Made by a program: the position numbers and the translations under genes
Notes under the pieces: model-generated
What the model saw: the letters and a program-made list of their open reading frames with translations, nothing else
Told to the model about the DNA's origin: nothing
The model's database searches: none
Assembly: GCA_965207565.1 (NCBI GenBank)
Contig: CBDBMQ010000024.1
Span: forward strand, 125,860 to 189,859
Source: Rhodothermales bacterium
GTDB taxonomy: Bacteria; Bacteroidota; Rhodothermia; Rhodothermales; Bin80
DNA length: 64,000 bases
Direction: 5' to 3'
Shown here: piece by piece, positions 1-62,923 of the stretch
Layout: the number at the start of each line of letters is the position of its first letter
Numbering within the stretch: position 1 is the first letter of the stretch

Positions 1-1361
1 AATTAATCCGGGATTCTACCTGCGCATGTTTGCGGCGCCGGTTCTTAAACTCCGGGGCGGATTCTCGCGCACGATCCTCTTTCGAGAGTTTTCCCTTCTT
101 GGGAAGAATCACATGCTTCAACCTTGACGTCAGTGCCTTCATGTTCGGCTTGGATGAATAGCCCCGATCAAAACTCATGGCGTGCACGTTCGGATAGGTC
201 TTCTTGCACTGATCCACTAAATCCACCGTGAGGTCTACATCACACTCGGTCCACATAATCTGCCACATCAGGATGAATCGATGATCATTCTCTATGATGG
301 AGACCGGAACCCCCAACTCGACCTTCTTCCCTCCACTCTTCCCCTTCTGAATCCAACGCGTATGGCGGGCATGCAGCGAATAGATCTTCTCATTGGAAGG
401 GATCTTTTCGCCCTTCACCAAACGGCGTTCCACTTGGTCATGAAGCGTCCAGGCCAGCTCAGAGGCCGATTCCAGACGCGATATCCACGCAGAGTTTGGA
501 TCCAGCTTCTCAATCTCTTGAAGAACCTGATCACATCGCTGGATGCGCCAGGTGCAAAGCAAAAGATAGCTCTGCACCGCTTCAAGGTTCTTGGATTTTG
601 CGTTCGTCTCCACAGCCCGGTACGCAGACTGGAGCGATCGCAATAGATGGTCAGCCTGACGCCAACCGGGAAGATCACAGTTCCCGTCCAGTTCGCACAC
701 CTCCCAGGCCTTTATAGTCTCCCTGAAAAGCAAGCGGATCGCATCACGTAACATGCTCGGTCGGAAACTGAACATTCGTTTCCACCACATACGAATCACA
801 GCGAGCCTCCATCGGGGCGTTGGGATCCTCCCCCAGTGCCTGCATCCCCACCTCCACAATGATCGGATTCAACTCCGCCCAAATCTCCTCGGTGATCAAC
901 GAAACATTATCAATGACCGTCTGCAATTCATACACATACCCGTCTCCAAATTCCGAATCGTCATGTTGTAACATCTGACGTAGTCGCCGATGTTCATTGG
1001 CCTCATCCACTAAGTGATCATAGTCCGTGTTCAGCGCCTGCTTCACAAGTGCCAATACAAGGATGCGCCAGTAGTGCATGCCCGGGCGCCCCTCGCGTTG
1101 ACGGGTCGTTTTTCCGATCTTCTGTCGAAGAATTGTGAGGATTTGTTCCAAGTGGAGTTTACTCTTCCAAATCTGTTGCAATGATCGGAGCACACTGGCC
1201 ATATCATGGCGGGATTTGGGGTTGATTTCTATCTGCTCAATCGGGATGACGCCAAAGGAAGGGGCAGGATCAAATTGGTGTCTCATAACAGGGAAAATGG
1301 CGATTTTGAAGGTTGAAGATTTTGCCCAAATTCGGGGATCAGTGCGCAAAAATGGACGCAA
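1..1361 (-). pseudogene. IS5/IS1182-like DDE transposase (DUF772-type N-domain). Frameshifted near 750-760 and runs off the left edge.
   Basis: ORF 744..1361 ends ...VETNVQFPTEHVT*. A second frame (ATG 754, open to position 1) continues MLRDAIRLL...HTRWIQKGKSGGKKVELG...SFDRGYSS...VILPKKGKLSKEDRARE...HAQVESRIN. These are typical IS5/IS1182 blocks. The two parts overlap in different frames. Confidence 0.7.
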
Positions 1362-1586
1362 TCGCCCCGGAATGAGCCTCTGGAATGGTTCTACGCTGCA
1401 AAATCTGAAAAATCGACGTTTTCAGAAAAAATCTTCGCACAGAATCCATTCCGTGTATTCAGACGGAAATACCACCCACAACGCTTCCTCGGTAGAATAT
1501 CAGTGCTGAACTACTATTTTCGGACAGGCACTATATATCGGTGCTTCCAATTTATCTGCCTTAAAATTGGCGGACTTGTTCGGCAA

Positions 1587-1709
1587 CGTTTTGTTTATTG
1601 CTGCACGATCCTAACCGTCTGAGAACCGGGCGGAACCACGACGGTGGTATCTGTGCCTCCCGGCCAGCTGACATGTACTTTTTCGATCTCACTGCGTGGA
1701 GCTAACAGG
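1587..1709. repeat. Direct repeat copy 1: orphan duplicate of the 3' end of the 5033..8656 gene
   Basis: Aligns base-for-base with 5025-5148 (4 substitutions and 1 indel by eye). Confidence 0.85.
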
Positions 1710-1779
1710 ATCGAAAACAAGGGAACTGCTATCTTTTTCACCGGCTGGCAAGCTATGGATAAGGTCTTGAAATCCCTGA

Positions 1780-1830
1780 GTGCGTATTCCGATCAAGTGG
1801 GACACTGAGTTGGAATACAATAGGACGCAC
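1780..1830. repeat. Palindromic element, copy 1 (imperfect)
   Basis: gtgcgtattccgatcaagtggg/cactgagttggaataca...acgcac. Shares the GCGTATTCCGAT...ATCGGAATACGC core with 4963-5005 and 62860-62923. Confidence 0.5.
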
Positions 1831-1946
1831 TTAATTGGTTTTCTGTAATGCTGAAAACATGTATCTGTCTGAACAGCGAAACCTTCAGTTCCTGCAACTG
1901 TATCTTTGCTTCGGCGTTGATCCGATCTTTATTTAACCGTGGACTC

Positions 1947-4106
1947 ATGGGCGTTGATATAATTAGAGGAACCAGCAAAAAGCCTGTGGCAAGCGATGCA
2001 TTGACTAACTCCATTTCCTCTCTTCGCGTGAACGGCTTTTTGTTTATCGGACACCCGATCATAGGGACATATGACGGGGGAAAGGCACTTGATGCTCTTT
2101 TGGTCTCCAAGGAGAAAGGTATTGTTGTCTTTGATCTGATTGAAGGAACCAACGAGGGAGATTACTGCTCACGCCAAGACAACTCCGCGAATAGGCTTGA
2201 GTCTCTGCTCCGGACACATAGTGAACTGATGCAACGCAGGAATCTCCTCATTCCTATTCATACCATTTCATTCGCACCAGCAATATCTGGAAAGAGATTG
2301 CCTGGAGAAGAAAACGATTGTCTTATAGCGAATTCAACCACCTTGCTGGAAAAGCTAGGCGGTTTAGAGCCATGGTGCGATGAAAGAAAGGAGGATATTT
2401 ATGGAAAATCCCTGTCAGTTTTACAGAATGTTTCAACTATCCGCAAAAGCACAAGAAGGAGAATTGTTAAGAACCCAGACTCGCTTGGAACCAAACTCCA
2501 GAACTTAGAAAATTCAATAGCGACCCTTGACCAACAACAAAACAGGGCCGTGATTGAAACCGTAGACGGTGTCCAGCGCATTCGCGGCCTTGCCGGCTCC
2601 GGTAAAACTATTATTCTGGCATTGAAAGCAGCCTACCTGCACATTCAACACCCCGATTGGCGAATCGCTGTTACTTTCTACACACGCTCTCTCAAGGAGC
2701 ATTTCCGGCAGCTTATTACGAGATTTACCCTTGCTCAAACTCATGAAGAACCGGACTGGAACACTCTGAAAATTTTAAACGCGTGGGGGGCAGCTGGTGG
2801 AACGGGCCGTGATGGCATCTATCATAAATTCTGCATGACGCATGGTGTGAAGTATTTTGACTTCAATGCGGCAAGAAAATTCGGGCAGGGAAAAGAATTT
2901 TCAGGCGCCTGTGAAGACGCGCTTCGCAATTGTGAGGGATTCAAAAATATTTACGATGTGATATTGGTAGATGAGGCGCAGGACCTCCCGCCAGAATTTC
3001 TGCGCATCTGCTATAATCTTCTGGGCGAAAAGAAGATGCTTATTTACGCGTATGATGAGTTGCAGAATCTGTCTGGAGAATCACTTCCTTCCCCAGGGAG
3101 AATCTTCGGCACCGACAGCGACGGATCTCCGTTGGTTACGTTCGATGAATCATCAAACAATGACATTGTTCTAGAAACGTGTTATCGTAACTCGAGACCA
3201 GTGCTCACCACCGCACATGCCCTTGGGTTTGGGATCTACAGGAACACAAGGAGACAAGACACATCCAGACTTGTTCAGATGTTCGACGATCCCCGATTCT
3301 GGAAAGACGTCGGATACAGGGTAAAAAAGGGCAATTTATCACTTGGCAGTCACGTAAGCCTGCACAGAACACCAGATACAAGTCCTAAGTTTCTTGAAAA
3401 CCATTCGCCTGTTGAAGAACTAATAAAATTCATCTGCTTCAATGAATCGCAGAAACAAACGGAATGGCTGGCAAACGAGATAAAAACCAATCTTGAGTCC
3501 GAGGAACTTCGACACGAAGATATTGTGGTCATTAACCCCAACCCTCTCACAACCCGTGCCAATGTCGGACCTATCCGCAGCTACCTTTTGGGAATGGATA
3601 TCAGAAACCACATTGCCGGCGTTGATACTGATGCAGATACTTTCTTTAAAGCTGAAAACTCAATTACCTTTACGGGTGTTCACCGTGCCAAGGGAAACGA
3701 AGCGGGAATGGTGTATATCATAAACGCACAGGAATGCTACTCCGGGACACTAACCGGACTGAATCTGGCAAAACTTCGCAACCAGCTTTTCACAGCAATT
3801 ACGAGAAGTAAGGCCTGGGTACGCGTACTCGGCATCGGCGATGGAATGAATGAATTAAAGGAAGAGTATGATCGTCTGCGATCAAACGATTTTCGGCTTG
3901 AGTTTGATTATCCAACTAGAGAGGAGATAGAGAATTTACGAGTGGTGCATCGAGACGTACCGAGGGAGGACATTGAACAGATTAAAGAGGACGGGAATCA
4001 CCTGTCCAGGCTGGTTGATAATATTGAATCCGGCAAATTTCATTTAAAAGACTTGGATGAAACTGTTGTGAGCAGATGGAAAGAATTGTTGGAAGTGGAT
4101 GAGTAG
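1947..4106 (+). CDS. Superfamily-1 (UvrD/AAA_30-like) helicase with an N-terminal NERD/PD-(D/E)xK-like region
   Basis: Walker A GLAGSGKT, Walker B VILVDEAQDL, then CYRNSRP, FTGVHRAKGNEA and LFTAITRSKAW. The N-terminus has ALDALLVSKEKGIVVFDLIEG. The track ORF starts at 1848; ATG 1947 is preferred because the first 33 residues are Cys/Ser-rich and unconvincing. Confidence 0.75.
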   Translation: MGVDIIRGTSKKPVASDALTNSISSLRVNGFLFIGHPIIGTYDGGKALDALLVSKEKGIVVFDLIEGTNEGDYCSRQDNSANRLESLLRTHSELMQRRNLLIPIHTISFAPAISGKRLPGEENDCLIANSTTLLEKLGGLEPWCDERKEDIYGKSLSVLQNVSTIRKSTRRRIVKNPDSLGTKLQNLENSIATLDQQQNRAVIETVDGVQRIRGLAGSGKTIILALKAAYLHIQHPDWRIAVTFYTRSLKEHFRQLITRFTLAQTHEEPDWNTLKILNAWGAAGGTGRDGIYHKFCMTHGVKYFDFNAARKFGQGKEFSGACEDALRNCEGFKNIYDVILVDEAQDLPPEFLRICYNLLGEKKMLIYAYDELQNLSGESLPSPGRIFGTDSDGSPLVTFDESSNNDIVLETCYRNSRPVLTTAHALGFGIYRNTRRQDTSRLVQMFDDPRFWKDVGYRVKKGNLSLGSHVSLHRTPDTSPKFLENHSPVEELIKFICFNESQKQTEWLANEIKTNLESEELRHEDIVVINPNPLTTRANVGPIRSYLLGMDIRNHIAGVDTDADTFFKAENSITFTGVHRAKGNEAGMVYIINAQECYSGTLTGLNLAKLRNQLFTAITRSKAWVRVLGIGDGMNELKEEYDRLRSNDFRLEFDYPTREEIENLRVVHRDVPREDIEQIKEDGNHLSRLVDNIESGKFHLKDLDETVVSRWKELLEVDE

Positions 4107-4111
4107 AAATC

Positions 4112-4780
4112 ATGTCATCACCTAACCAGGTTCGGGAGCAGATCAATAAACTCGTTACGTTTTTAGTAGAAAAAGGTCTTTCGAATGATCAGAATTTTGC
4201 TTTTCCGAAAGAATCCAAGGGGGAAACTGTTCAAATTATATTCCCAGGACGAGAACATTTGTCGGCTGCGTTAAAAGATCGAAATTACAGAGAAATTTAC
4301 AGGGATATAGCAAAAGAACGTGCGTACAATGCAAAAATGCTGGATGGCGCATTGATTCAGATGACCTATGAATTTATTAGTACTTCTCTTCAACGTCATC
4401 GCCTCGCGTTTTTCCCTTCGCCAGTTCTCGGAGAATTTCAACAAGATCCTGACATCTATCTTGATGATGAAATTTATGGAGATATAACTTCAAGGAACAT
4501 CGTTCCGTCTCCCTTGCGTTTTGACTACGACTCCAGAGAAGGTAAATACAAAGAACTGATTCATCCAAAATCCCATTTTTCGCTGGGTCAATATCCAAAT
4601 TGTCGTATTCCCGTGACTTCGCCGATGACTCCAGTGCGGTTTGTGGATTTTGTTTTAAGGAACTTCTATGATACTAAAGAAAATCGGTACGCCGACGACC
4701 TTCCAAGGGATAACTGTTCATTTGCTGAATCAATATTTTCGGCAGAGCGCAATATTGTTCACATTGTCGTTCCCACATAG
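4112..4780 (+). CDS. Helicase-associated 222-aa protein, function unknown
   Basis: Starts 5 nt after the helicase stop on the same strand. No motif recognised by eye. Confidence 0.6.
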   Translation: MSSPNQVREQINKLVTFLVEKGLSNDQNFAFPKESKGETVQIIFPGREHLSAALKDRNYREIYRDIAKERAYNAKMLDGALIQMTYEFISTSLQRHRLAFFPSPVLGEFQQDPDIYLDDEIYGDITSRNIVPSPLRFDYDSREGKYKELIHPKSHFSLGQYPNCRIPVTSPMTPVRFVDFVLRNFYDTKENRYADDLPRDNCSFAESIFSAERNIVHIVVPT

Positions 4781-4962
4781 AGAAAGAGCTTAGCCCAAGT
4801 TCACCATCTCGCCTGAGAGGATACTGATTTTCGGACCGATTCCCCCCTTATAATATACAGAGAACTTGGGCCAGCAACAAGACTGTCTTTTGGCTGAGAT
4901 GGTCAGTCGCGGTGTACCCCGTTTATGGGAAAAATTTGGACAATTTAGTTCGTTGGCTAAGT

Positions 4963-5005
4963 TGCGTATTCCGATGGAAGTGGTCCACTTCGATCGGAAT
5001 ACGCA
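4963..5005. repeat. Palindromic element, copy 2 (21-bp stem with 1 mismatch, 1-nt loop)
   Basis: tgcgtattccgatggaagtgg t ccacttcgatcggaatacgca. Lies between the convergent ends of 4112..4780 and 5033..8656. Confidence 0.8.
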
Positions 5006-5024
5006 GGAGACCTCTGTTCAGCAG

Positions 5025-5148
5025 CGTTTTGTTTATTGCTGCACGATCCTAACCGTCTGGGCACCGGGCTGAACCACGACGGTGGTATCTGTGCCTCCCG
5101 GCCAGCTGACATGCACTTTTTCGATCTCACTGCGTGGAGCTAACAAGG
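5025..5148. repeat. Direct repeat copy 2: the functional 3' end of the 5033..8656 gene
   Basis: Same sequence as 1587-1709. Includes the stop codon at 5033-5035. Confidence 0.85.
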
Positions 5149-8100
5149 GAGCAAGGCTGTTCTGACTCCAATACCCGCTTCCTGCAACGACAGCTGCCGC
5201 AGGGCCAAGCGAACCATCCCGATATTGTGCCCGCACATTGGCTCCGATGGTAAATGTATTCGCGTGTTCTGTCCGTAGTTCAACACGAAGACCAACGCCG
5301 GCAGATTGATTCTCAAAATGTACGACGGGCCCTGCATTTTGGGTCACTGCCAGATCCAGACGTCCGTCCAGATTGAAGTCAGCGGCTACGGATGCCCGCT
5401 GAGAGCCATAAATCCGAATCCCCGAGTGCTGTGCGAACTGTGGGACTAACTCGTGAGATTCATTTGCAAGTAGTAGCAGTCCTCGTCCACTATCCAGTCG
5501 GGGATAGCCCGAAGCAACTGCGAAGAAATTCTGACTCAGAAATAAATCTATTCTCCCATCGCCGTTGAAATCCCCCGCTACCGGTGCAAAGGCGGGCGAC
5601 CACTGAGCCTCAACCGCGAGCGGAACTACCTCATAGTGCGACTCCCTGTTCATGAACACGGTCGTCTGCCAGTGCGTGACTTCGTGATCAGCAGCTCCAG
5701 ATAATACAGAACCGAAGATGTCTTCTGCCGAACGCTCAGAGAATTCTCTATACGTTCGAACGTGCTGGCGCAAAATTGGCAGGGCATGCGTGAGCGTCTG
5801 AAAATCCCGTACCAATCCCAATGCATCCAGGTCGGGGGTCCACTGGACTTCGAGAAGATCCATGCTGCTGTTCTGGTCCAGATCACCATAATAAGCCCGA
5901 AGGGGGGTGTTCTGGTCATAGGGAACGTTTTGTCCCCAGTTGGTCACAACCAGGTCAAGCCTTCCGTCGCCATCAAAATCAGCCGGTGTAATCCCATTCC
6001 ACCACCCCACATAATCAGTGAGCCCCAAAGAGCGCGTCATGCGAACCAACTGCCCCCCCCCTCGGTTGTGGAATACCTGTACGGGCCCCCACATCATTGC
6101 AAGTGCGAGATCCGTCTGCTGATCACCATTGAGGTCCGCAGCGACGGCTCCGGATACGAGTCCCAGATTTTCGAACGGTGCGCTGAGCTCATCATCCCGT
6201 AGGAGCTCTTGATCGCGGATCCGATAGATGGTGCTGGTTGTAACTTGGGGGTATTGACCGGGAATAAAATGCCCCCCGACGAAGAGCTCCAAAGAACCAT
6301 CTCCGGTGAAATCCCCCAAGGCGAGCGGCCCAGGACTCTCTGACCCAAGCATGTAGGGAGTCCCCTCTCCGCTGAGTGACACCTGAAGAATCCGGGAAAG
6401 ATCTCCCGCTTCTTCTGGGGTCCGCTCATAGTTGCCTACTGCTGCCCATACGACTCCCGGTAGAGCAACTATTCCTGCATGATCCCCGGTCGAGGGGTTG
6501 CCTAGGTACTGCTTGGTTGCGAAGATTCCAGCATCGTTGACCAAGAGTTGCAATCGCTTCCCCTTCCCGCCTCCTAGAATCAGATCCTCATCCCCATCAG
6601 AATCTATGTCTACCGCAACCAACGCCGGCCCTCTCTGGCTGAGCCTATGCGGAAGCAGCGGCTGCCGGGCAAAATCCGCATAACTAGTTTCTTCATGCTG
6701 CAATCCGGTACTCAAGGCCTTGAATAAGGTCGGAGGAAGTTCCGAAGACACCTTGGGTTGAGGTGGTGGCTGATTAATCCAATACTCACTGTTTGGTATC
6801 ACTTCATCAACCCTGCTGAGTCCACCATCAGGCCAGTGTACCTCGATGACTGCACCGCTTGAATAAGCAAACGTGCGTGCTGCATCACTGGATGAAAGAT
6901 ACTCCCCGCCCGCAATGACCTCCTGATTCTGTGGCGGTAAGCTGTCACTGACGACACGTACGAGCGCACCAACACCTGTAGGGTTGGGGGGCAGTCCCTG
7001 GAGACGGACGAGGATCCGCTCGGCTTCTGCATCATTGCGAAATACCCCGACGGGGCCATCCAGTCGATTGATCACCAGATCCTGATCTCCATCTTCATCC
7101 AGATCGGCCAGTGCCATGCCGTGAGCTACATCCGGGTTCACCCCCAATCCCCAGCCCTGCTCAACCCGTTCGAATTGCGCATTCCCAAGGTTGCGGAATG
7201 CGATATTTGGTAGATCCAGGTCAGGAAAATCCAATAAAACCTCTCGCCAGAGGCGTCTGGAGGAACGAGCAGCAATCTGAGCATCTGCATCCATTGCATC
7301 GTATGCATGCCCGGTTGTGAGGAGTAAATCTGGCCATCCATCCAGATCCACATCGGTGAACACACTGCTCCATGTCCAGCCGGTTGCGGCAACGCCGCTC
7401 CAGCGGGCGATTTCGGCGTAGGTTGTATCCGCGCGATTGAGTAGCAGCATGTTCTGCATCTCCTGTGGGCGGGCGTGGATATCCCCCATGGTCAATACCT
7501 CGGGTGGGATCACAAAATGCTGTCTTTGCCGCTCTGAGTAGCCACTGCTCAACATATCCGCCAGAAAGAGATCTACATGCTCATCTGCATTGATATCTGC
7601 GGCTGCCACCGACATTGTTGACTGGCTTGTCTTTCGAAGTGCCAGTGTGGAGGCGGCTCTGAAGATACCATCTGCACTCCCGAACCAGAGAGCATCCGGA
7701 CTTTCGAAGTCATTGCACACATAGAGATCTGGGTACCCGTCCTGATTAAAATCCTGAGAGCGCACGGACAGCGTCCAGTACTGTGGCGCTTCGCTTAACG
7801 AGACTCCATTTTCATCCAAAAACAGCCCCTCTGTGAACGAACCTTCCGTAAAATTCCCTGCGCCATCATTAAAGAAGATTCGATCAGGTTCAGCAAGTTC
7901 GACCCGCATCAATCGACCTTCCTGGTGGATGAGTTTGTAATCCTTTGCCCAGTACTCACGCACAGCGAACGAGTCGGCGACCGGTTCTACAACACGTTCA
8001 AACGTAATCTCTTCCGGGGGCCAAACATCTTTGACCGTCGCTTCCTTATAGAACCCGACATACAGATCTAAATCCCCATCTGCGTCCATATCAGCCAAGG

Positions 8101-8656
8101 CAACCGAGGTAGCACCTCCAGATTGAGGAAGGTTTGCCCCTGTGGTATAATCTGTGAAATGCCCCGTGCCGTCATTCACGTACAACTGCACTCCACTTCC
8201 AAGTGAAGTCACAAAGAGATCCAGGTCCCCATCTGCATCAACATCAGAGAACGCTGTGCCAGTTGCTCTTGGATGAACAAGGCCTAAACCCGCCTGAAGT
8301 GTGATGTCCTGGAATTTCCAAGCCCCCAGATTGCGATGGAGTGTACTATGATGCTCCATCCCTGCCAAAAAAATATCAGGCAGGCTATCCCCATCCACAT
8401 CGCCAATGGCGACCCCCGATCCATTGACAACGTGCCGGTTGTCTACAAGAGCCGAAATGCTGATATGATTACTGAACGCAATTGCGTCGGGGATTTCTGT
8501 AAACCCTGTCCCCGTGCCAATGGGGGGACTCAGTGGACGCACCCGATACCCTTCGAACGAAGTCCAAGTACGCTCGGGCTCGGAGCTGCATCCCACAAAA
8601 AGAAACACACCGAGCAAAAATACACGCCAGACCATGCATGCGGAGCACCTGGGCAT
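5033..8656 (-). CDS. Secreted VCBS/FG-GAP repeat protein with ASPIC/UnbV C-terminal domain (CRTAC1 family)
   Basis: N-terminal signal with lipobox-like LFVGCSS. Many DxDxDGxxD(L/I) FG-GAP/VCBS repeats. C-terminus reads GANVRAQYRDG...GSGYWSQNS...VHVSWPGG. Confidence 0.85.
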   Translation of the reverse strand: MPRCSACMVWRVFLLGVFLFVGCSSEPERTWTSFEGYRVRPLSPPIGTGTGFTEIPDAIAFSNHISISALVDNRHVVNGSGVAIGDVDGDSLPDIFLAGMEHHSTLHRNLGAWKFQDITLQAGLGLVHPRATGTAFSDVDADGDLDLFVTSLGSGVQLYVNDGTGHFTDYTTGANLPQSGGATSVALADMDADGDLDLYVGFYKEATVKDVWPPEEITFERVVEPVADSFAVREYWAKDYKLIHQEGRLMRVELAEPDRIFFNDGAGNFTEGSFTEGLFLDENGVSLSEAPQYWTLSVRSQDFNQDGYPDLYVCNDFESPDALWFGSADGIFRAASTLALRKTSQSTMSVAAADINADEHVDLFLADMLSSGYSERQRQHFVIPPEVLTMGDIHARPQEMQNMLLLNRADTTYAEIARWSGVAATGWTWSSVFTDVDLDGWPDLLLTTGHAYDAMDADAQIAARSSRRLWREVLLDFPDLDLPNIAFRNLGNAQFERVEQGWGLGVNPDVAHGMALADLDEDGDQDLVINRLDGPVGVFRNDAEAERILVRLQGLPPNPTGVGALVRVVSDSLPPQNQEVIAGGEYLSSSDAARTFAYSSGAVIEVHWPDGGLSRVDEVIPNSEYWINQPPPQPKVSSELPPTLFKALSTGLQHEETSYADFARQPLLPHRLSQRGPALVAVDIDSDGDEDLILGGGKGKRLQLLVNDAGIFATKQYLGNPSTGDHAGIVALPGVVWAAVGNYERTPEEAGDLSRILQVSLSGEGTPYMLGSESPGPLALGDFTGDGSLELFVGGHFIPGQYPQVTTSTIYRIRDQELLRDDELSAPFENLGLVSGAVAADLNGDQQTDLALAMMWGPVQVFHNRGGGQLVRMTRSLGLTDYVGWWNGITPADFDGDGRLDLVVTNWGQNVPYDQNTPLRAYYGDLDQNSSMDLLEVQWTPDLDALGLVRDFQTLTHALPILRQHVRTYREFSERSAEDIFGSVLSGAADHEVTHWQTTVFMNRESHYEVVPLAVEAQWSPAFAPVAGDFNGDGRIDLFLSQNFFAVASGYPRLDSGRGLLLLANESHELVPQFAQHSGIRIYGSQRASVAADFNLDGRLDLAVTQNAGPVVHFENQSAGVGLRVELRTEHANTFTIGANVRAQYRDGSLGPAAAVVAGSGYWSQNSLAPLLAPRSEIEKVHVSWPGGTDTTVVVQPGAQTVRIVQQ

Positions 8657-8668
8657 CCAGAGCAGGTG

Positions 8669-9157
8669 CTACATTACCCCTGCCTTGAACTCATTCTCAA
8701 GGTATTTGGCAATCTCATCCAGGTAAGCCTCTCGCTCGGCCGTGATCATTACCGGCTCCCAGTTCCCGCCCATTGAGAGTCGGGCCTCAAACTCGGCTTC
8801 CATACGTGAGGAAAACGTGCTCGCGTTCCCTGCTGCACGATTGCGCGGACGCGCATTGACAAAGATGCGTACCCTGGCCGCCACATACCCGGCAGCCTGT
8901 TCATCCGCGAAGGTGACTACATCTTTCCATGATGTTTCCAGGCGTACATCCTCGGGGGTGTCAACTTCTCGATTCATGCGGTATCCGTATCTGGTAAGCA
9001 GGGCATCCTGGGCAGTTGAGACAATATGCCACCGTGCGGAAGTTCCGAGATTGTAACGAAACGTGCTGTCACGAGCCCGCTCACCGTCGGCACCCGGTCC
9101 AGAACAGGCGCCCACAAGCAAGACACAGCATAAAATCCAGTAGATTGATGGTTTCAT
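8669..9157 (-). CDS. Small lipoprotein, function unknown
   Basis: MKPSIYWILCCVLLVGACSGPG signal/lipobox from the internal ATG at 9157. Same strand as the Sus pair. Confidence 0.55.
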   Translation of the reverse strand: MKPSIYWILCCVLLVGACSGPGADGERARDSTFRYNLGTSARWHIVSTAQDALLTRYGYRMNREVDTPEDVRLETSWKDVVTFADEQAAGYVAARVRIFVNARPRNRAAGNASTFSSRMEAEFEARLSMGGNWEPVMITAEREAYLDEIAKYLENEFKAGVM

Positions 9158-9258
9158 TGAGATTCTTCGTATAGTGGTGATTAACCAAAAGCATGGAAGG
9201 GGGGCAGTTCCCATGTGAGTACTGCCCCCCCCCTTCGTTTCATTGAACCGAATGTTTG

Positions 9259-10893
9259 TTAGCGCGGTAAGCTAGCGTCGGTATCAAACCGATAAGCGAC
9301 CGGTGCCCCTCCCGTTCCTCCAACGCCACCAAACGTATAATTCTGCAACCCCAGCGTTTCCAACTCACTGCCGGGCACGGGGAAATGGACTGGCGTTCCT
9401 GTAACGAGATCACCTAATCCGCGATCATCGAAATAGGCCAACCCTCCTGCCGTATTCATCGTCTCAATCCGACGTTCATGCTTAAGCTTGGCCCAAAGGC
9501 TTGCGGAGTCCAAGTGACTCTGTGCGTCTGCCGGAGAGCCCACAGGGTCCGATCCAGAGGCTGGATTCAGCATTCCGCGCGCCACACGCGTCAGATTGAT
9601 CAATTCAGCAACCTCTTCTGTGCTGCCGCCAGTACGCAACAACCCTTCGACTTTATACAAGTCCATTTCTGTGGGGATGATGTGTGGCATGGCGCCAGTC
9701 GAACTATTGTCATAGTAATAAAAATATCGTGTGTGAGTATGGGATGAAAAATGGTAGGTGCCACGAGCGGGTGGAAAAGGACCATCATATCCAAAAAAAG
9801 TAAAATCTGTACCGCTTGCCGTAGGATCATTGGCACTCCCAACAATCCTACGATCTGATGTCATGATCTCAAACACTGAGCGATTTTGCACTGGCGTTGA
9901 CAGCCATTTCTGATAACCTCCCGACTCATCAGCCGGGCCGATCGTGCGATAATCTGCCCGAGCCCAAGAGGTTCCCTCTTGAGCAAAATTCTTCAGGCAG
10001 TCACTCCTAATGTACGGATCTTTATTTCCGATGGGTGCGAAAACTGTGGTAATTCCATTATCAACGAGACCCATGACAGTACTCCAGTTCACCGCTGCAC
10101 GCTCGGCTTCATTCCTTGCAACCTGAACCGTAAAACGTGCAATGAACGAATTGATCAGTCTGACCATGTCTTGAGAACTTACATTCAGTCCCCAGATCCA
10201 ACCGTCAATCGAAAACGAGTTTGCACTCGCGATTGCACGTGCTTCCTCCAACATCCGAATCGCCTCCTGATTCACCTCCATGTAAGGACGTAGTTCAAGT
10301 ACATCATTCTCCAGATCTACCGTCTCGTCAAACACAAACGCTTGGTCAAAGACCAGAGAAAGCGTCCCATGCATCAGACCCTGATTCATTTTTGCAAATG
10401 CTTTCAGGCGTGCTGTATCATGGCCATCACGGGTATATATATTGTTGTCCACACTCTCTTCTTCTTCCGCCCGAATAATTGCCTGAAGCGCATCGGCCGC
10501 ATTTGAGAGACCTGTGTAGCTTAAAAACCAAGGGCCCTCCGTGGCGCCTGAACTGCTGTAGGTTGAGCTGTTATCCCAAGCAATACGGGGCTCACTGGAC
10601 ATATCCCTCATACCAAAGTTGCCCCAGGAAGACGAGTTCTCATCTGCCATGGTTGAAAAGGTCAGGGCAGAACCAGCGCACGACTGGGTCGCACTCCAAT
10701 AACTTGGAAACGTACCTCGCACCAAGTTCACGACATCACCGGGTTGCGCGAAGGCGACCTTCCTGTCCGGTGAGTTTTCGTTTTCCACGGCCAGATCCTG
10801 GCAACCCGTGGCGCTGAGCGTCAGGACACCGATCAGCATGTAGAATGCAAATTGCTTCATTTGATTGATATTCTTAAATTTCATATGGGTCAC
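9259..10893 (-). CDS. SusD/RagB-family nutrient-binding outer-membrane lipoprotein
   Basis: Signal plus Cys (LTLSATGCQDL). Size and position are right, immediately downstream of a SusC-type gene. The start may be an internal Met (10884 or 10860). Confidence 0.85.
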   Translation of the reverse strand: MTHMKFKNINQMKQFAFYMLIGVLTLSATGCQDLAVENENSPDRKVAFAQPGDVVNLVRGTFPSYWSATQSCAGSALTFSTMADENSSSWGNFGMRDMSSEPRIAWDNSSTYSSSGATEGPWFLSYTGLSNAADALQAIIRAEEEESVDNNIYTRDGHDTARLKAFAKMNQGLMHGTLSLVFDQAFVFDETVDLENDVLELRPYMEVNQEAIRMLEEARAIASANSFSIDGWIWGLNVSSQDMVRLINSFIARFTVQVARNEAERAAVNWSTVMGLVDNGITTVFAPIGNKDPYIRSDCLKNFAQEGTSWARADYRTIGPADESGGYQKWLSTPVQNRSVFEIMTSDRRIVGSANDPTASGTDFTFFGYDGPFPPARGTYHFSSHTHTRYFYYYDNSSTGAMPHIIPTEMDLYKVEGLLRTGGSTEEVAELINLTRVARGMLNPASGSDPVGSPADAQSHLDSASLWAKLKHERRIETMNTAGGLAYFDDRGLGDLVTGTPVHFPVPGSELETLGLQNYTFGGVGGTGGAPVAYRFDTDASLPR

Positions 10894-10898
10894 CTCAC

Positions 10899-13800
10899 CT
10901 AAAATTGGAATTCTAATTTCGCCCGAATCGTCCGATAGGGCGGATAACTGAAATTGTCTACACGATAGAGTGTCGGATCGGCCCCAGATCCTACCTCAGG
11001 ATCAAATCCAGAGTAGCTACTGAAGGTGAGTAGATTGCGCCCAATGATACTCGCCGAGAGAGAATGTAACATATTGCCGAAGACACGAGAAAGTTGCTGA
11101 CGATTGAGTGTGTACCCCACCGAAAGCTCACGCAGCTTCAGATACGTTGCATCTTCTACATAATGACTGTTTCTCCCCGTCGCATCGTAGAGGACTTCGT
11201 AGTACGTGGTGGACTTCTTCATGCTTTCTTCCTTTCCTCTCTGGTCCTGATCTGCATTCCGGCCATCACGGTATCCCCATTGCTTGGTGAAATTATAGAC
11301 ATCGCCTCCAATCTGGGCCCCCCACAGCATATAGAGTCTGAATCCTTTGTAGCGGAAGGTCGTGTTGACTCCGAGGCTGAAGTCCGGAAGCGCATTTCCA
11401 ATTTGAACCCGATCTGTCTCGTTCACCTCGTCGTAGTACTTAATGGGAATTCCCCATCGGTAACTGTCATCTCCAACTGTGACATTCGTCCCCCACAGAT
11501 CGTCTTCCCCACCTATGACACCGTCTGGGCCTGCGCCACTGGTGTAGCTGTTACCTTGACCAACGGCGACCACATATCCATCATCATTGACATCAAAGAA
11601 GCTTGCGTCAACTCCGGCCGGAAGCCTGGAGAGACCTGTAATGAATTCATTCCCATACATCCCCCCCAGGATTTCGCCTTCGCGGAAGAAAAATAGGCTC
11701 CGGGGGCCACCCAAATAGGGGTTCGAATTGAATTCAGATATCTCTTGGCGGGTGCGGTCAAACGTGACCCCGACCTCGAAATCCATATCCCGTGAATTGT
11801 AGACATTCGCATTCACGCTGGCTTCAATGGTGTTGGATGTCAGATCTCCTGCATTACTCCACTGGCTCCCAAACCCGAAGTACCCGGCGAGTGGAACGCC
11901 AAGGAGCAGATCCTCGACCTTTGTGTCGGCATACACCAACTCAATGAATATCCGGTCGAGAACTCCCACATCCAATCCAAACTCCATTTCTGTCTGCAAT
12001 TCCGGCTTCAGGAACGCATTCCCAAGGGTTGATTTGGAGAGTTGACCATTGCTCAGGGTTAGCGTCTCGTACTGCGCCTGGAATCTAGGACGGCCACCGG
12101 CGGTTCCGATGGACGCGCGCAGCTTCAATTCAGTGATCGGGTTGTCCGCTGGCCAGAATGATTCCTCGGAAACCCGCCATGCAGCACTTCCGCGGAAATA
12201 GGGTTGCCAGCGCTCTTCCGCTCCAAAGAGGGAACTGCCGTCATAACGGAAGAAGGCGTCCACTATATATTTATCCATGTAGTCCAACCCTGCGGTCGCG
12301 TAATACCCTTCAGCTATAACGGTCTCGGTGTAGTTCGCGAAGTCTCTTGAGCCACTATCGCAGTCTTCCTCTCCACAAAACTGCTTAACATTGGAGAGAT
12401 CTTTAATCCCCAACGTCAAAAGATTGCTCCCAACAATGCCCTCCGAAAAATAGTCGGAATTTTCTATCTGGGCTTTCAGTTGACCGCGGGTCGTGAAATC
12501 TCCAAACCGTTTATTTAGAGACACGGTCAAGTCATAGTTGATTGCCTCACTAATCTCGTTGCTCCGCTCAATCCGACCACTATTGATAGGTGATGCGCCG
12601 ATCGATGCAAACCCAACGTCATAGAATTCCGTTGCGTCTCTATCTGAACGGTCATAACTGAAATTGCTCTCAAGACTCAACCAATCCAGCGGACTCCAAC
12701 GTGCACGGAAATTGCCAAGCAGGCGTGATCGTTGCCGACCAATATCTGCATTCTGAATTACGTATAGCGGATTTTCCTCTACCGAAAGTGGATCCGCCTG
12801 AATTTTTAGCTCACCCAGTTCATCCGTTGCAGACAGGCTTACCAATGGATTCGTAAACATCAGGCCAAAGAATGGATTGAAGAATGAAGACGAACCTGGT
12901 ACCCCAGTGAGCCCATCATTTGATGTCTGGGAATAAAACCCCGAGGTTGAAATGCTCAGGTTTGGCCGAATGCGATGGTCAAGATTCACGCGAAAGCTTC
13001 TCCGTTTCATCCCGTCAAGTCCCTGAAGCGGTCCCTGCTCAGCAACATTGGTGAAAGACGCCAAGAAGTTTGTTTTTGGACCATTTTGGCTTACACCAAC
13101 ATAATTTGTCCAAGTATCGCCGGGATCAAACAATTCCTCAAACGCATTGTGCAGCGTACCCTGATACGGATTATCAAAAAAAGCCACCCCATTAGCGGTT
13201 TTTTCCTGCACCACTCCTGGGCCATATCCATTGGCCAAACAGGTAGGGCAGGTATTGACTGCACCCTCTCTATTCAGGAAGTTCCCCGATGCATCAACTT
13301 GTAGATCGTGGGATGTATTGGCTTGCAGGGTTTTTGCTACACTGCCAACCCCGTATTCATTGCGGACCGTCACCCGTGTCTGATTCAAGGGGGTCGCTGT
13401 ACCACGCTGCGTTGTGATGTTGATCACACCATTCTGGGCTCGTGAGCCATAGAGCGATGAAGCAGCAGCTCCCTTAACAATCTCAATATTTTCAATATCC
13501 AGTGCATCAATGTCAACCTGGTTCGCACCGAGAACGACTCCATCCACAATGTAGAGTGGCTGATTACTGCCGGTGATACTGGTCGCACCGCGTAGCCGCA
13601 CAGAAACGGAAGCACCTGGCGCGCCACTGCCTGCCTGAACGGCAACTCCGGCAACCTTGCCCTGAATGGACGCAACCGGATTTGATGCAGGTGCCAGGGT
13701 TATATCCTCACTACTTACCTGACTTACTGTGAAAGCCAGTTTCTTCCTCGGCGTTGCTTCAGCGACCCCGGTGACAACCAAATCATCCAGTTGGAGGAAA

Positions 13801-14111
13801 TCCACGGCCAGAACGAAGTCCTCCGTCATGATGCTCTCACTGACTGTAATTGCCCGCACCTGCTCCACAAACCCAACATAACGAGCGGTCAACTCCAAGG
13901 TTTGCCCAACATGCTCAGCAGGAATCGGAAACGTATATGTCCCATCAAGATCGGTGGATGCACCAATCACTAATGACTCTACGAGCACATTTGCTCCGAT
14001 GAGCGGCTCGCCTGTGTCATCTGTAACCGTTCCGGTAATTACGCTCTGAGCACTTGCCAATCCCGGGAACAGCAACATGCAAAGAACGAGGAAAGAGTGT
14101 CTTTTCTTCAT
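10899..14111 (-). CDS. SusC/RagA-family TonB-dependent outer-membrane transporter
   Basis: MKKRHSFLVLCMLLFPGLASAQ signal. CarboxypepD_reg-like ITGTVTDDTGEPLIGANVLVE. Plug region IEIVKGAASSLYGSRAQNGVINITT. Ends in a terminal Phe (LEFQF). Start chosen at ATG 14111, not the track start 14327. Confidence 0.9.
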   Translation of the reverse strand: MKKRHSFLVLCMLLFPGLASAQSVITGTVTDDTGEPLIGANVLVESLVIGASTDLDGTYTFPIPAEHVGQTLELTARYVGFVEQVRAITVSESIMTEDFVLAVDFLQLDDLVVTGVAEATPRKKLAFTVSQVSSEDITLAPASNPVASIQGKVAGVAVQAGSGAPGASVSVRLRGATSITGSNQPLYIVDGVVLGANQVDIDALDIENIEIVKGAAASSLYGSRAQNGVINITTQRGTATPLNQTRVTVRNEYGVGSVAKTLQANTSHDLQVDASGNFLNREGAVNTCPTCLANGYGPGVVQEKTANGVAFFDNPYQGTLHNAFEELFDPGDTWTNYVGVSQNGPKTNFLASFTNVAEQGPLQGLDGMKRRSFRVNLDHRIRPNLSISTSGFYSQTSNDGLTGVPGSSSFFNPFFGLMFTNPLVSLSATDELGELKIQADPLSVEENPLYVIQNADIGRQRSRLLGNFRARWSPLDWLSLESNFSYDRSDRDATEFYDVGFASIGASPINSGRIERSNEISEAINYDLTVSLNKRFGDFTTRGQLKAQIENSDYFSEGIVGSNLLTLGIKDLSNVKQFCGEEDCDSGSRDFANYTETVIAEGYYATAGLDYMDKYIVDAFFRYDGSSLFGAEERWQPYFRGSAAWRVSEESFWPADNPITELKLRASIGTAGGRPRFQAQYETLTLSNGQLSKSTLGNAFLKPELQTEMEFGLDVGVLDRIFIELVYADTKVEDLLLGVPLAGYFGFGSQWSNAGDLTSNTIEASVNANVYNSRDMDFEVGVTFDRTRQEISEFNSNPYLGGPRSLFFFREGEILGGMYGNEFITGLSRLPAGVDASFFDVNDDGYVVAVGQGNSYTSGAGPDGVIGGEDDLWGTNVTVGDDSYRWGIPIKYYDEVNETDRVQIGNALPDFSLGVNTTFRYKGFRLYMLWGAQIGGDVYNFTKQWGYRDGRNADQDQRGKEESMKKSTTYYEVLYDATGRNSHYVEDATYLKLRELSVGYTLNRQQLSRVFGNMLHSLSASIIGRNLLTFSSYSGFDPEVGSGADPTLYRVDNFSYPPYRTIRAKLEFQF

Positions 14112-14647
14112 GAGATCTTCTGTATTTGTGAGTGGAATACTTCCTAAGGTGAGGACTACACAGGGTCCTCTGGAAGGATACATAAGTTTCTTAAAGATAA
14201 GAAAACTTTCATACAACTGCACATAAACACCTAAGCAATACCGATTGATCCCTCTGCAACGGAGGTTCTCCCCAGCCCTGCCTTGTACGTAACAAAGAAA
14301 ACCCGAAAAATGGGTCTTTTTCCGCATGTTTAGTGGGTGGTCATAGACTCCAAAATCAGGCTATTGGTTTGAGCATGATGCGGGTCTCATGTCCATGCTC
14401 TGCGGGTTTTTAGGATTGATTTCTTTGATTTGACCTTGAAATAATCTGGTCGAAGGTTTCTGAAGAATTTTTGTGCAAGCCTGGGAGGGGGGATTGCGTG
14501 ATTTCGCGTTTCAGGCCCCACAGGGCCGATTGTCGCGTGAGACCTGCACCTGTTCGCTAAAGATTTCCTTCATTTTTTCAACCATGCGAGACACGATGAA
14601 CCGGTTCCCGACCTTGCGCGCTGTGTCCGATATTCAAATTAATCCAT

Positions 14648-62858: not shown

Positions 62859-62859
62859 T

Positions 62860-62923
62860 GCATATTCCGATGATATGGACCACCCATTCCGGGCGAAGTG
62901 GACCACTTGGATCGGAATACGCA
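62860..62923. repeat. Palindromic element, copy 3 (with partial duplication of the left arm)
   Basis: gcatattccgatgatatgg...attccgggcgaagtgg a ccacttggatcggaatacgca. Confidence 0.5.

Follow-up and report, generated by a model that had tools for sequence, protein, structure and literature searches.

A helicase-DUF2290 gene pair in a Rhodothermales genome, very probably an intact copy of a named two-gene anti-phage system

Organization of the gene pair

We analyzed a stretch of 64,000 nucleotides (nt) from a Rhodothermales bacterium (assembly GCA_965207565.1, contig CBDBMQ010000024.1, positions 125,860 to 189,859 of the forward strand). This whole stretch is called the window here, and coordinates refer to it unless another locus is named. 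Positions 1947-4780 contain two adjacent, co-oriented genes, one for a superfamily 1 (SF1) helicase and one for a protein of the DUF2290 family. We consider it very probable that the pair is Helicase + DUF2290, a two-gene anti-phage system, in intact form, and that it arrived by horizontal transfer within about 3.66 kb of inserted DNA. The elements of the pair are the following:

1710-1946, forward strand: upstream non-coding leader, 95-98% identical at the nucleotide level to the related loci L001 and L089-L092 (see below), with the identity beginning exactly at 1710
1947-4106, forward strand: helicase gene, 719 amino acids (aa), SF1 UvrD/PcrA-like, defined by open reading frame (ORF), PADLOC, Pfam and family alignment
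1947-2516, forward strand: helicase N-terminal domain, aa 1-190, family-specific, with conserved G35, P37, D49, A50, G58, Q77, D78 and R98
2595-2609, forward strand: Walker A (motif I), GSGKT, aa 217-221, invariant in the family alignment
2970-2984, forward strand: Walker B (motif II), DEAQD, aa 342-346, with D342, E343, Q345 and D346 invariant
3180-3200, forward strand: motif IV, CYRNSRP, aa 412-418, with Y413, R414 and N415 invariant
3678-3704, forward strand: motif V, VHRAKGNEA, aa 578-586, with K582, G583, N584 and E585 invariant
3801-3818, forward strand: motif VI, TRSKAW, aa 619-624, with T619, R620 and W624 invariant
4107-4111, forward strand: 5-nt spacer AAATC between the helicase stop codon TAG (4104-4106) and the DUF2290 start codon ATG (4112)
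4112-4780, forward strand: DUF2290 gene, 222 aa, encoding the second component of the system and its putative effector, defined by Pfam and PADLOC

Read from its earliest ATG, the first ORF covers 1848-4106 on the forward strand and encodes 752 aa. In the family alignment, all helicase homologues align from the ATG at 1947 (MGVDIIRG...), and the alignment to the PADLOC helicase model begins at residue 3 of the 719-aa version. We therefore place the helicase start at 1947, with a product of 719 aa. A preliminary description of this DNA, made from the letters and their ORFs, had reported an SF1 helicase and a 222-aa protein starting 5 nt past its stop codon. Both genes are real, and all five core motifs that it quoted were found in the helicase, as was the stretch ALDALLVSKEKGIVVFDLIEG, which corresponds to aa 47-67. 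The short spacer is consistent with translational coupling of helicase and DUF2290; in seven of eight annotated plasmid homologues, the spacing is 5 nt or the genes overlap by 1-20 nt. The leader is carried along with the module and is presumably its promoter and 5' untranslated region. A promoter scan detected no sigma-70-type consensus, a consensus that is uninformative for the host phylum, and a search of window positions 1-5300 against Rfam gave no match. An antisense ORF of 119 aa (1793-2152, reverse strand) overlaps the helicase start and is open in L001 as well; it is most likely a by-product of sense-strand coding conservation.

Assignment to the Helicase + DUF2290 system

Profile searches with Pfam and PADLOC placed both proteins in one named system. 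The helicase matches the PADLOC model PDLC03002 "Helicase" with 967 bits (E 1.3e-291), its residues 3-716 aligning on model positions 2-705 of 707. The small protein matches PDLC02999 "DUF2290" with 297.5 bits over model positions 1-221 of 222, and it belongs to the Pfam family DUF2290 (PF10053; E 5e-51; 173.5 bits, cut-off 25). An E. coli plasmid homologue has comparable PADLOC scores, 988 and 277 bits against 967 and 297 bits for the window pair. Since both proteins match the system models at full length, we assign the pair to Helicase + DUF2290, named Rst_HelicaseDUF2290 in DefenseFinder and helicase-DUF2290 in PADLOC. All features of membership are present, namely a DUF2290 protein of about 220 aa and a family-specific SF1 helicase of about 720 aa, encoded by adjacent, co-oriented genes with the helicase first.

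Helicase + DUF2290 from a P4-like satellite hotspot of K. pneumoniae specifically inhibits phage T7 (Rousset et al., 2022; PMC9122126). Furthermore, deletion of a candidate copy in P. aeruginosa MPAO1 leads to phage-specific increases in susceptibility (bioRxiv 10.64898/2026.09.16.752016). The window copy shares with the system of Rousset et al. both protein families at full length, the gene order, the tight coupling and the form of a mobile, stand-alone two-gene cassette. It differs in its location, since it lies in Rhodothermales between chromosomal ASPIC/UnbV genes and not in a P4-satellite or prophage hotspot. Its identity to the nearest enterobacterial copies examined is about 44% for DUF2290 and about 52% for the helicase.

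The preliminary description had taken the pair for a stand-alone two-gene defense module and had guessed that the small protein belongs to a DUF family that pairs with helicases. Both ideas are borne out, as both proteins fit the helicase-DUF2290 models, the partner is DUF2290 and a homologous pair blocks T7. The novelty that it left room for is lost, because the system already has a name; the defense interpretation stands. The system has been validated experimentally, and the window pair is an ordinary representative of it; what is new is the host lineage and the insertion site. For annotation, this amounts to a routine PADLOC/DefenseFinder call, and the locus adds no new system type.

Insertion of the pair between two host genes

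Comparison with related loci revealed filled and empty versions of the same site. In the closest genome locus, from a Rhodothermales metagenome-assembled genome (L001), the module shows 95% and the right-hand gene 91% nucleotide identity. Metagenome contigs L089-L092 are 98% identical at the nucleotide level to window positions 1710-14433. On these contigs the pair is the sole content of about 3.66 kb between two tandem FG-GAP/UnbV_ASPIC genes, which sit in a cluster with SusC- and SusD-like genes. At the empty sites, on the more distantly related contigs L094 and L095, the ASPIC orthologues (75 and 69% aa identity) lie 10-50 nt apart, with no helicase or DUF2290 between them. We therefore conclude that the pair is a discrete insertion, which comprises the two genes with flanks of about 580 nt on the upstream and about 250 nt on the downstream side. 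Indeed, the preliminary description had proposed such an insertion with this pair as its only cargo, and the lower GC content points in the same direction (44.5% in the module and 40.5% in DUF2290, against 54.2% in the neighboring gene). At a more distant Rhodothermales locus (L003), the similarity is confined to 1889-4793, i.e., to the two genes. The comparison of filled and empty sites within Rhodothermales thus identifies the two genes alone as the unit of transfer. Neither an integrase nor terminal inverted repeats nor convincing attachment (att) sites were found for the insertion.

Co-occurrence of helicase and DUF2290 and their genomic context

A scan seeded with DUF2290, using one genome per species, yielded 223 confirmed stretches, of which the best 80 loci (46-90% identity) were analyzed. 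These 80 loci come from more than 15 phyla and include members of Rhodothermales, Chloroflexota, Latescibacterota, Binatia, Spirochaetia, Gemmatimonadota, Planctomycetota, Proteobacteria, Bacillota, Actinomycetota and others. Using the window helicase as tblastn query, we found a full-length helicase homologue directly upstream and on the same strand in 77 of them. Two of the three remaining loci are located at contig ends. In the third (L048, 3083-3780), there is room upstream but no helicase, and DUF2290 is split into two overlapping ORFs; this copy is probably a decaying orphan. On annotated plasmids, the gene immediately upstream of DUF2290 encodes, in eight of eight cases, a protein of about 715 aa annotated as "ATP-binding domain-containing protein", at a DUF2290 identity of 22-44%; the hosts are E. 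coli (IncI), Acinetobacter, Corynebacterium (pCG4), Lactococcus, Thioflavicoccus, Dietzia, Mycobacterium and Exiguobacterium. The reverse look-up, starting from the helicase homologues P0129 and P0150, also found DUF2290 as the next gene, with an insertion sequence (IS) splitting the pair in one case. At locus L129 (6001-10279), a Transposase_mut IS lies between helicase and DUF2290, DUF2290 is cut to 173 aa and HsdR follows directly downstream. Taken together, pairing is near-obligate, and the co-occurrence on which the preliminary description had staked its proposal holds.

No third gene was universal among the 80 loci. The commonest neighbor is the type I restriction protein HsdR, encoded directly downstream in 11 loci (median gap 22 nt), while HsdS is found upstream in seven, sometimes fused to DUF559 (HsdR/HsdS examples are L018, L005, L129 and L130). 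The pair is hence often embedded within type I restriction-modification (R-M) operons, much as PrrC is. Neighbors of the pair elsewhere, including on conjugative or mobilizable plasmids, comprise BREX PglZ, methyltransferases, GmrSD and toxin-antitoxin pairs. The genomic context with its type I R-M neighbors reinforces the defense reading, and the near-obligate pairing in more than 15 phyla together with the embedding in R-M operons strengthens the case for a self-contained immune module. On small Acinetobacter plasmids (about 11 kb), represented by pSSA3_1 of Acinetobacter nosocomialis (L082) and the matches H7-H10, the pair adjoins the BrnT/BrnA toxin-antitoxin genes and tet(39). Consequently, the defense pair travels with a resistance gene on mobilizable plasmids.

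These data also bear on two other functions that the pair might have. A UvrD-like helicase with a small partner could have a housekeeping function in the repair or replication of DNA as a helicase of the UvrD/PcrA/Rep/HelD type, the small protein being its accessory factor. The helicase core is indeed PcrA/UvrD-like in sequence, and the neighbors in the window are ordinary outer-membrane and carbohydrate-utilization-type genes. However, the helicase scores 11-22 bits against the NCBIfam equivalogs for PcrA, Rep, helicase IV, RecD2 and HelD, far under their cut-offs of 419-951. Moreover, the pair is missing at the orthologous site of related genomes, has a lower GC content and is patchily distributed over its many phyla. 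It is found on conjugative or mobilizable plasmids and on an integrative element, often inside type I R-M operons, and among 5426 complete E. coli genomes only 3 have the helicase-DUF2290 subtype. We regard a housekeeping role as highly improbable.

The mobile contexts raise a second alternative, in which the pair would serve mainly in competition between mobile elements or in their maintenance (plasmid or satellite exclusion, addiction), inhibition of T7 being a side effect. The pair is frequent on small and on conjugative plasmids beside toxin-antitoxin and partition genes, it is present on an integrative conjugative-type element in E. coli, and the system was first found in P4-like satellite hotspots. 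In addition, host-range effects are narrow or absent in Pseudomonas and Lactococcus. The window pair, however, is chromosomal, has no mobility genes of its own and is stable in at least five assemblies at 95-98% identity, and the direct evidence consists of phage inhibition alone. Such a main function therefore appears unlikely, although the two roles are not mutually exclusive.

Helicase core and N-terminal domain

The helicase matches the Pfam families UvrD_C_2 and UvrD-helicase. Its closest solved relatives by sequence are PcrA and UvrD1, with the match limited to the motif I region. The marked residues of Walker A, Walker B and motifs IV, V and VI are invariant among helicase homologues down to 33% identity, and the ratio of non-synonymous to synonymous substitution rates (dN/dS) is 0.24-0.26 in comparison with L001 and L089. 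These are the signatures of an ATPase-competent helicase under purifying selection.

The N-terminal domain had been likened to a NERD/PD-(D/E)xK fold in the preliminary description on the basis of ALDALLVSKEKGIVVFDLIEG. We could not confirm this resemblance. The N-terminal domains of eight diverse helicases gave no Pfam match at E<=10, NERD (PF08378) included, and a PDB sequence search with the helicase N-terminus found no relative. The PADLOC model "C3a187 NERD+UvrD" aligns to the helicase core only (residues 190-625), leaving its NERD half unaligned. Within the quoted stretch D49 is conserved, whereas the following strand, FDLIEG, has no acidic residue or lysine that is conserved across the family and is replaced by FKLAQN, VHISEL, FRFSGE or LLLSDD in other members. 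With neither a profile match nor a conserved D...(D/E)xK triad, the assignment as NERD/PD-(D/E)xK is not supported by sequence. The domain might still have a degenerate endonuclease-like fold.

Conservation and predicted structure of DUF2290

The DUF2290 family comprises 1712 clusters at 50% identity (E<=1e-3), and in all of the best 150 of these clusters DUF2290 is a stand-alone protein of about 220 aa. Residues Y63, D78, P104, R136, D138, H151, H155, R165, F177, F180 and Y186 are invariant among homologues of 22-97% identity; in a closer set, H96, R97, C164, R183 and E212 are invariant as well. A first AlphaFold model, based on 36 sequences, reached a predicted local distance difference test score (pLDDT) of 65 and returned only noise in Foldseek. 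The model obtained with 88 more diverse sequences reached a pLDDT of 86.1 and a predicted template modeling score (pTM) of 0.85. In this model, an N-terminal helix is combined with a three-stranded meander and a central sheet, and the conserved polar residues are placed on neighboring strands (74-101, 135-140, 154-158 and 165-168). The invariant Asp, His and Arg residues suggest that DUF2290 is an enzyme.

Several candidate folds for DUF2290 were tried and rejected. Weak Foldseek matches to UTRA/chorismate-lyase folds recurred, and hhalign against E. coli UbiC gave a probability of 0.15%. Likewise, a Foldseek match to a 2H phosphoesterase (4rpt) together with an "HLTL"-like motif at H155 was followed by an hhalign probability of 0.66% against ThpR. 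A PD-(D/E)xK site was dismissed because, in the alignments, Q83-x-x comes after D78 and a conserved lysine is lacking. A second Pfam family, DUF1837 included, was not detected in nine DUF2290 members at E<=10, and PHROGs contains no DUF2290 family.

Compared with its helicase partner, DUF2290 changes faster among close relatives. Its dN/dS is 0.60 against L001 (window 4112-4777 versus L001 6001-6666), a value based on small numbers. In comparison with L089 (10001-10666) there are six non-synonymous and no synonymous differences, again a small sample. The changes are concentrated outside the invariant positions and lie mostly in the N-terminal 66 residues. Faster change of DUF2290 would fit a component under phage-driven pressure.

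Possible division of labor and comparison with other helicase systems

A review states that the role of the helicase domains in the system "was not explored", and an analogy between Rst_HelicaseDUF2290 and Hachiman has been proposed explicitly (bioRxiv 10.1101/2024.10.26.620412). In our working model, helicase and DUF2290 would be co-translated and form a complex. The SF1 UvrD-like helicase would load on DNA or translocate along it using ATP, serving as sensor and motor, and might recognize a phage-specific DNA structure, a replication intermediate or a phage protein that acts on DNA during replication. By analogy with Gabija and Hachiman, DUF2290 would execute or gate the response. This soluble protein of about 220 aa carries a polar cluster on adjacent beta-strands (D78, H96-R97, R136-x-D138, H151-x3-H155 and R165), and it would probably hydrolyze nucleic acid in a metal-dependent manner. 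We infer the complex, the sensing by the helicase and the enzymatic activity of DUF2290. A division of labor between a helicase as sensor and motor and DUF2290 as enzymatic effector is plausible, and we put it forward tentatively.

Gabija also consists of two genes, a UvrD-family SF1 protein (GajB) and a non-helicase partner. The GajB models give only local motif matches on the window helicase (best E 3.4e-9, residues 569-626). GajA, with its OLD ATPase and TOPRIM nuclease, is not present at the window pair, where the partner is DUF2290; moreover, the helicase comes first and not second and carries the family-specific N-terminal domain of 190 aa. With Hachiman, the pair shares the logic of a helicase sensor and a small DUF effector, but HamB belongs to superfamily 2 and the gene order is reversed, and DUF2290 has no profile similarity to the DUF1837 of HamA.

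The systems Nhi and NERD-UvrD (PADLOC Nhi and C3a187) resemble the window helicase in having an extra N-terminal domain in front of an SF1 core, and they suggest a different distribution of roles. Here the helicase itself would be the effector through an N-terminal nuclease of the NERD/PD-(D/E)xK type, and DUF2290 would be a regulator, an antitoxin-like inhibitor or the phage sensor. The helicase is co-linear with C3a187, an N-terminal domain of about 190 aa preceding the UvrD core (core E 1.7e-20), and Nhi/AbiO models give local matches on it; D49 and Q77-D78 of the N-terminal domain are nearly invariant. The rapid change of DUF2290 relative to the helicase (dN/dS 0.60 versus 0.26, and 6:0 against L089) might be expected of a subunit for sensing or specificity. 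On the other hand, the window N-terminal domain has no detectable NERD/PD-(D/E)xK signature, as described above. One would also expect a strictly invariant set of Asp, His and Arg, as in DUF2290, at a catalytic site more than in a passive regulator. Unlike Nhi and NERD-UvrD, moreover, the window helicase has an obligate second gene. We consider a helicase effector with a regulatory DUF2290 doubtful.

The reading of the pair as a defense system with DUF2290 as its enzymatic effector has to be weighed against a number of observations. The published anti-T7 activity is narrow, as it concerns one Klebsiella homologue tested in E. coli with one phage (PMC9122126). Effects of the MPAO1 deletion are modest and phage-specific (bioRxiv 10.64898/2026.09.16.752016), and a lactococcal plasmid homologue did not protect against the phages tested (PMC11381338). 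No mechanistic paper on Helicase + DUF2290 was found in the literature searched. In the window genome, the pair is surrounded by a SusC/SusD-ASPIC cluster and not by a defense island. A tblastn search of DUF2290 against 50,697 phage genomes gave no match. Finally, Foldseek with the model of pLDDT 86 returned nothing significant from the PDB (best E 0.53, TM<=0.21) or from the BFVD viral models (best E 0.11), and a sequence-profile search of the PDB found no solved DUF2290 relative, so that the view of DUF2290 as an enzyme or nuclease derives from its residue pattern alone.

One possible explanation, which we regard as speculative, is that DUF2290 is an effector of a fold absent from solved structures, an enzyme built around D78, H96, R97, R136, D138, H151, H155 and R165 and activated by a dedicated SF1 helicase with an unclassified N-terminal domain. 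If so, the biochemistry of Helicase + DUF2290 would differ from that of the nuclease-helicase pairs Gabija and Hachiman. The window copy, compact, intact and differing from its close relatives mainly by amino-acid changes in DUF2290, would then be a usable model for the mechanism. The invariant DUF2290 residues are direct targets for mutagenesis.

Sequences flanking the module

Outside the module, the following features were identified:

744-1361, reverse strand: partial ISNCY-family transposase gene, which matches NCBIfam NF033593 over positions 2-149 of 444 and scores 129 bits (cut-off 325)
1573-1709, forward strand: 137-nt duplicate of the ASPIC/UnbV 3' end, 95% identical to 5010-5146, abutting the breakpoint at 1709/1710
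4963-5005, no strand assigned: hairpin with a 21-bp stem between the convergent 3' ends of DUF2290 and ASPIC/UnbV, RNA fold -31 kcal/mol, z -6.3
5033-8656, reverse strand: right-hand host gene, FG-GAP/UnbV_ASPIC, 1207 aa (Pfam), with orthologues in L001, L089-L092, L094 and L095; not part of the system

On the left side, homology to all relatives ends at 1709/1710, and the window therefore lacks the original left junction of the insertion. The window also lacks the left ASPIC paralogue that L001 and L089-L092 carry. The left flank is a secondary, IS-associated rearrangement in the window lineage and lies outside the module. Two interpretations of the direct repeat of 131-137 nt (1573-1709 and 5010-5146) were discarded. 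It is not an att site, since relatives with the module do not have the left copy and homology breaks at 1709/1710. Nor does the left copy represent the 3' end of the lost left paralogue, since this gene ends in a sequence in L089 that does not match the copy.

On the right side, the hairpin at 4963-5005 is likely a bidirectional terminator or an element resembling repetitive extragenic palindromes (REP). A family of REP-like palindromes with the core TGCGTATTCCGAT has seven matches at <=2 mismatches, against 1.4 expected. Its copies include a half element at 1781-1803 upstream of the helicase, the full element at 4963-5005 and a 65-nt element at 62859-62923, about 58 kb away. In L001, an extra IS of 2.1 kb with a 488-aa DDE_Tnp_1 transposase (6773-8873, corresponding to window 4872-4880) lies between module and ASPIC gene; the alignments flanking it overlap by 9 bp, which suggests a target-site duplication.

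Downstream of the ASPIC gene, the window contains ORFs of 181, 544 and 1142 aa on the reverse strand (8669-14327). Their counterparts in L089 are a gene with no Pfam match in SusD-like position and a CarboxypepD_reg/Plug TonB-dependent receptor. The cluster is of the polysaccharide-utilization type, and the defense pair has landed in ordinary metabolic DNA. Within the ASPIC/UnbV gene itself, six copies of a 44-nt direct repeat (6279-8254, reverse strand) are found, mostly about 495 nt apart; these are FG-GAP repeat units of the gene and not a separate element.

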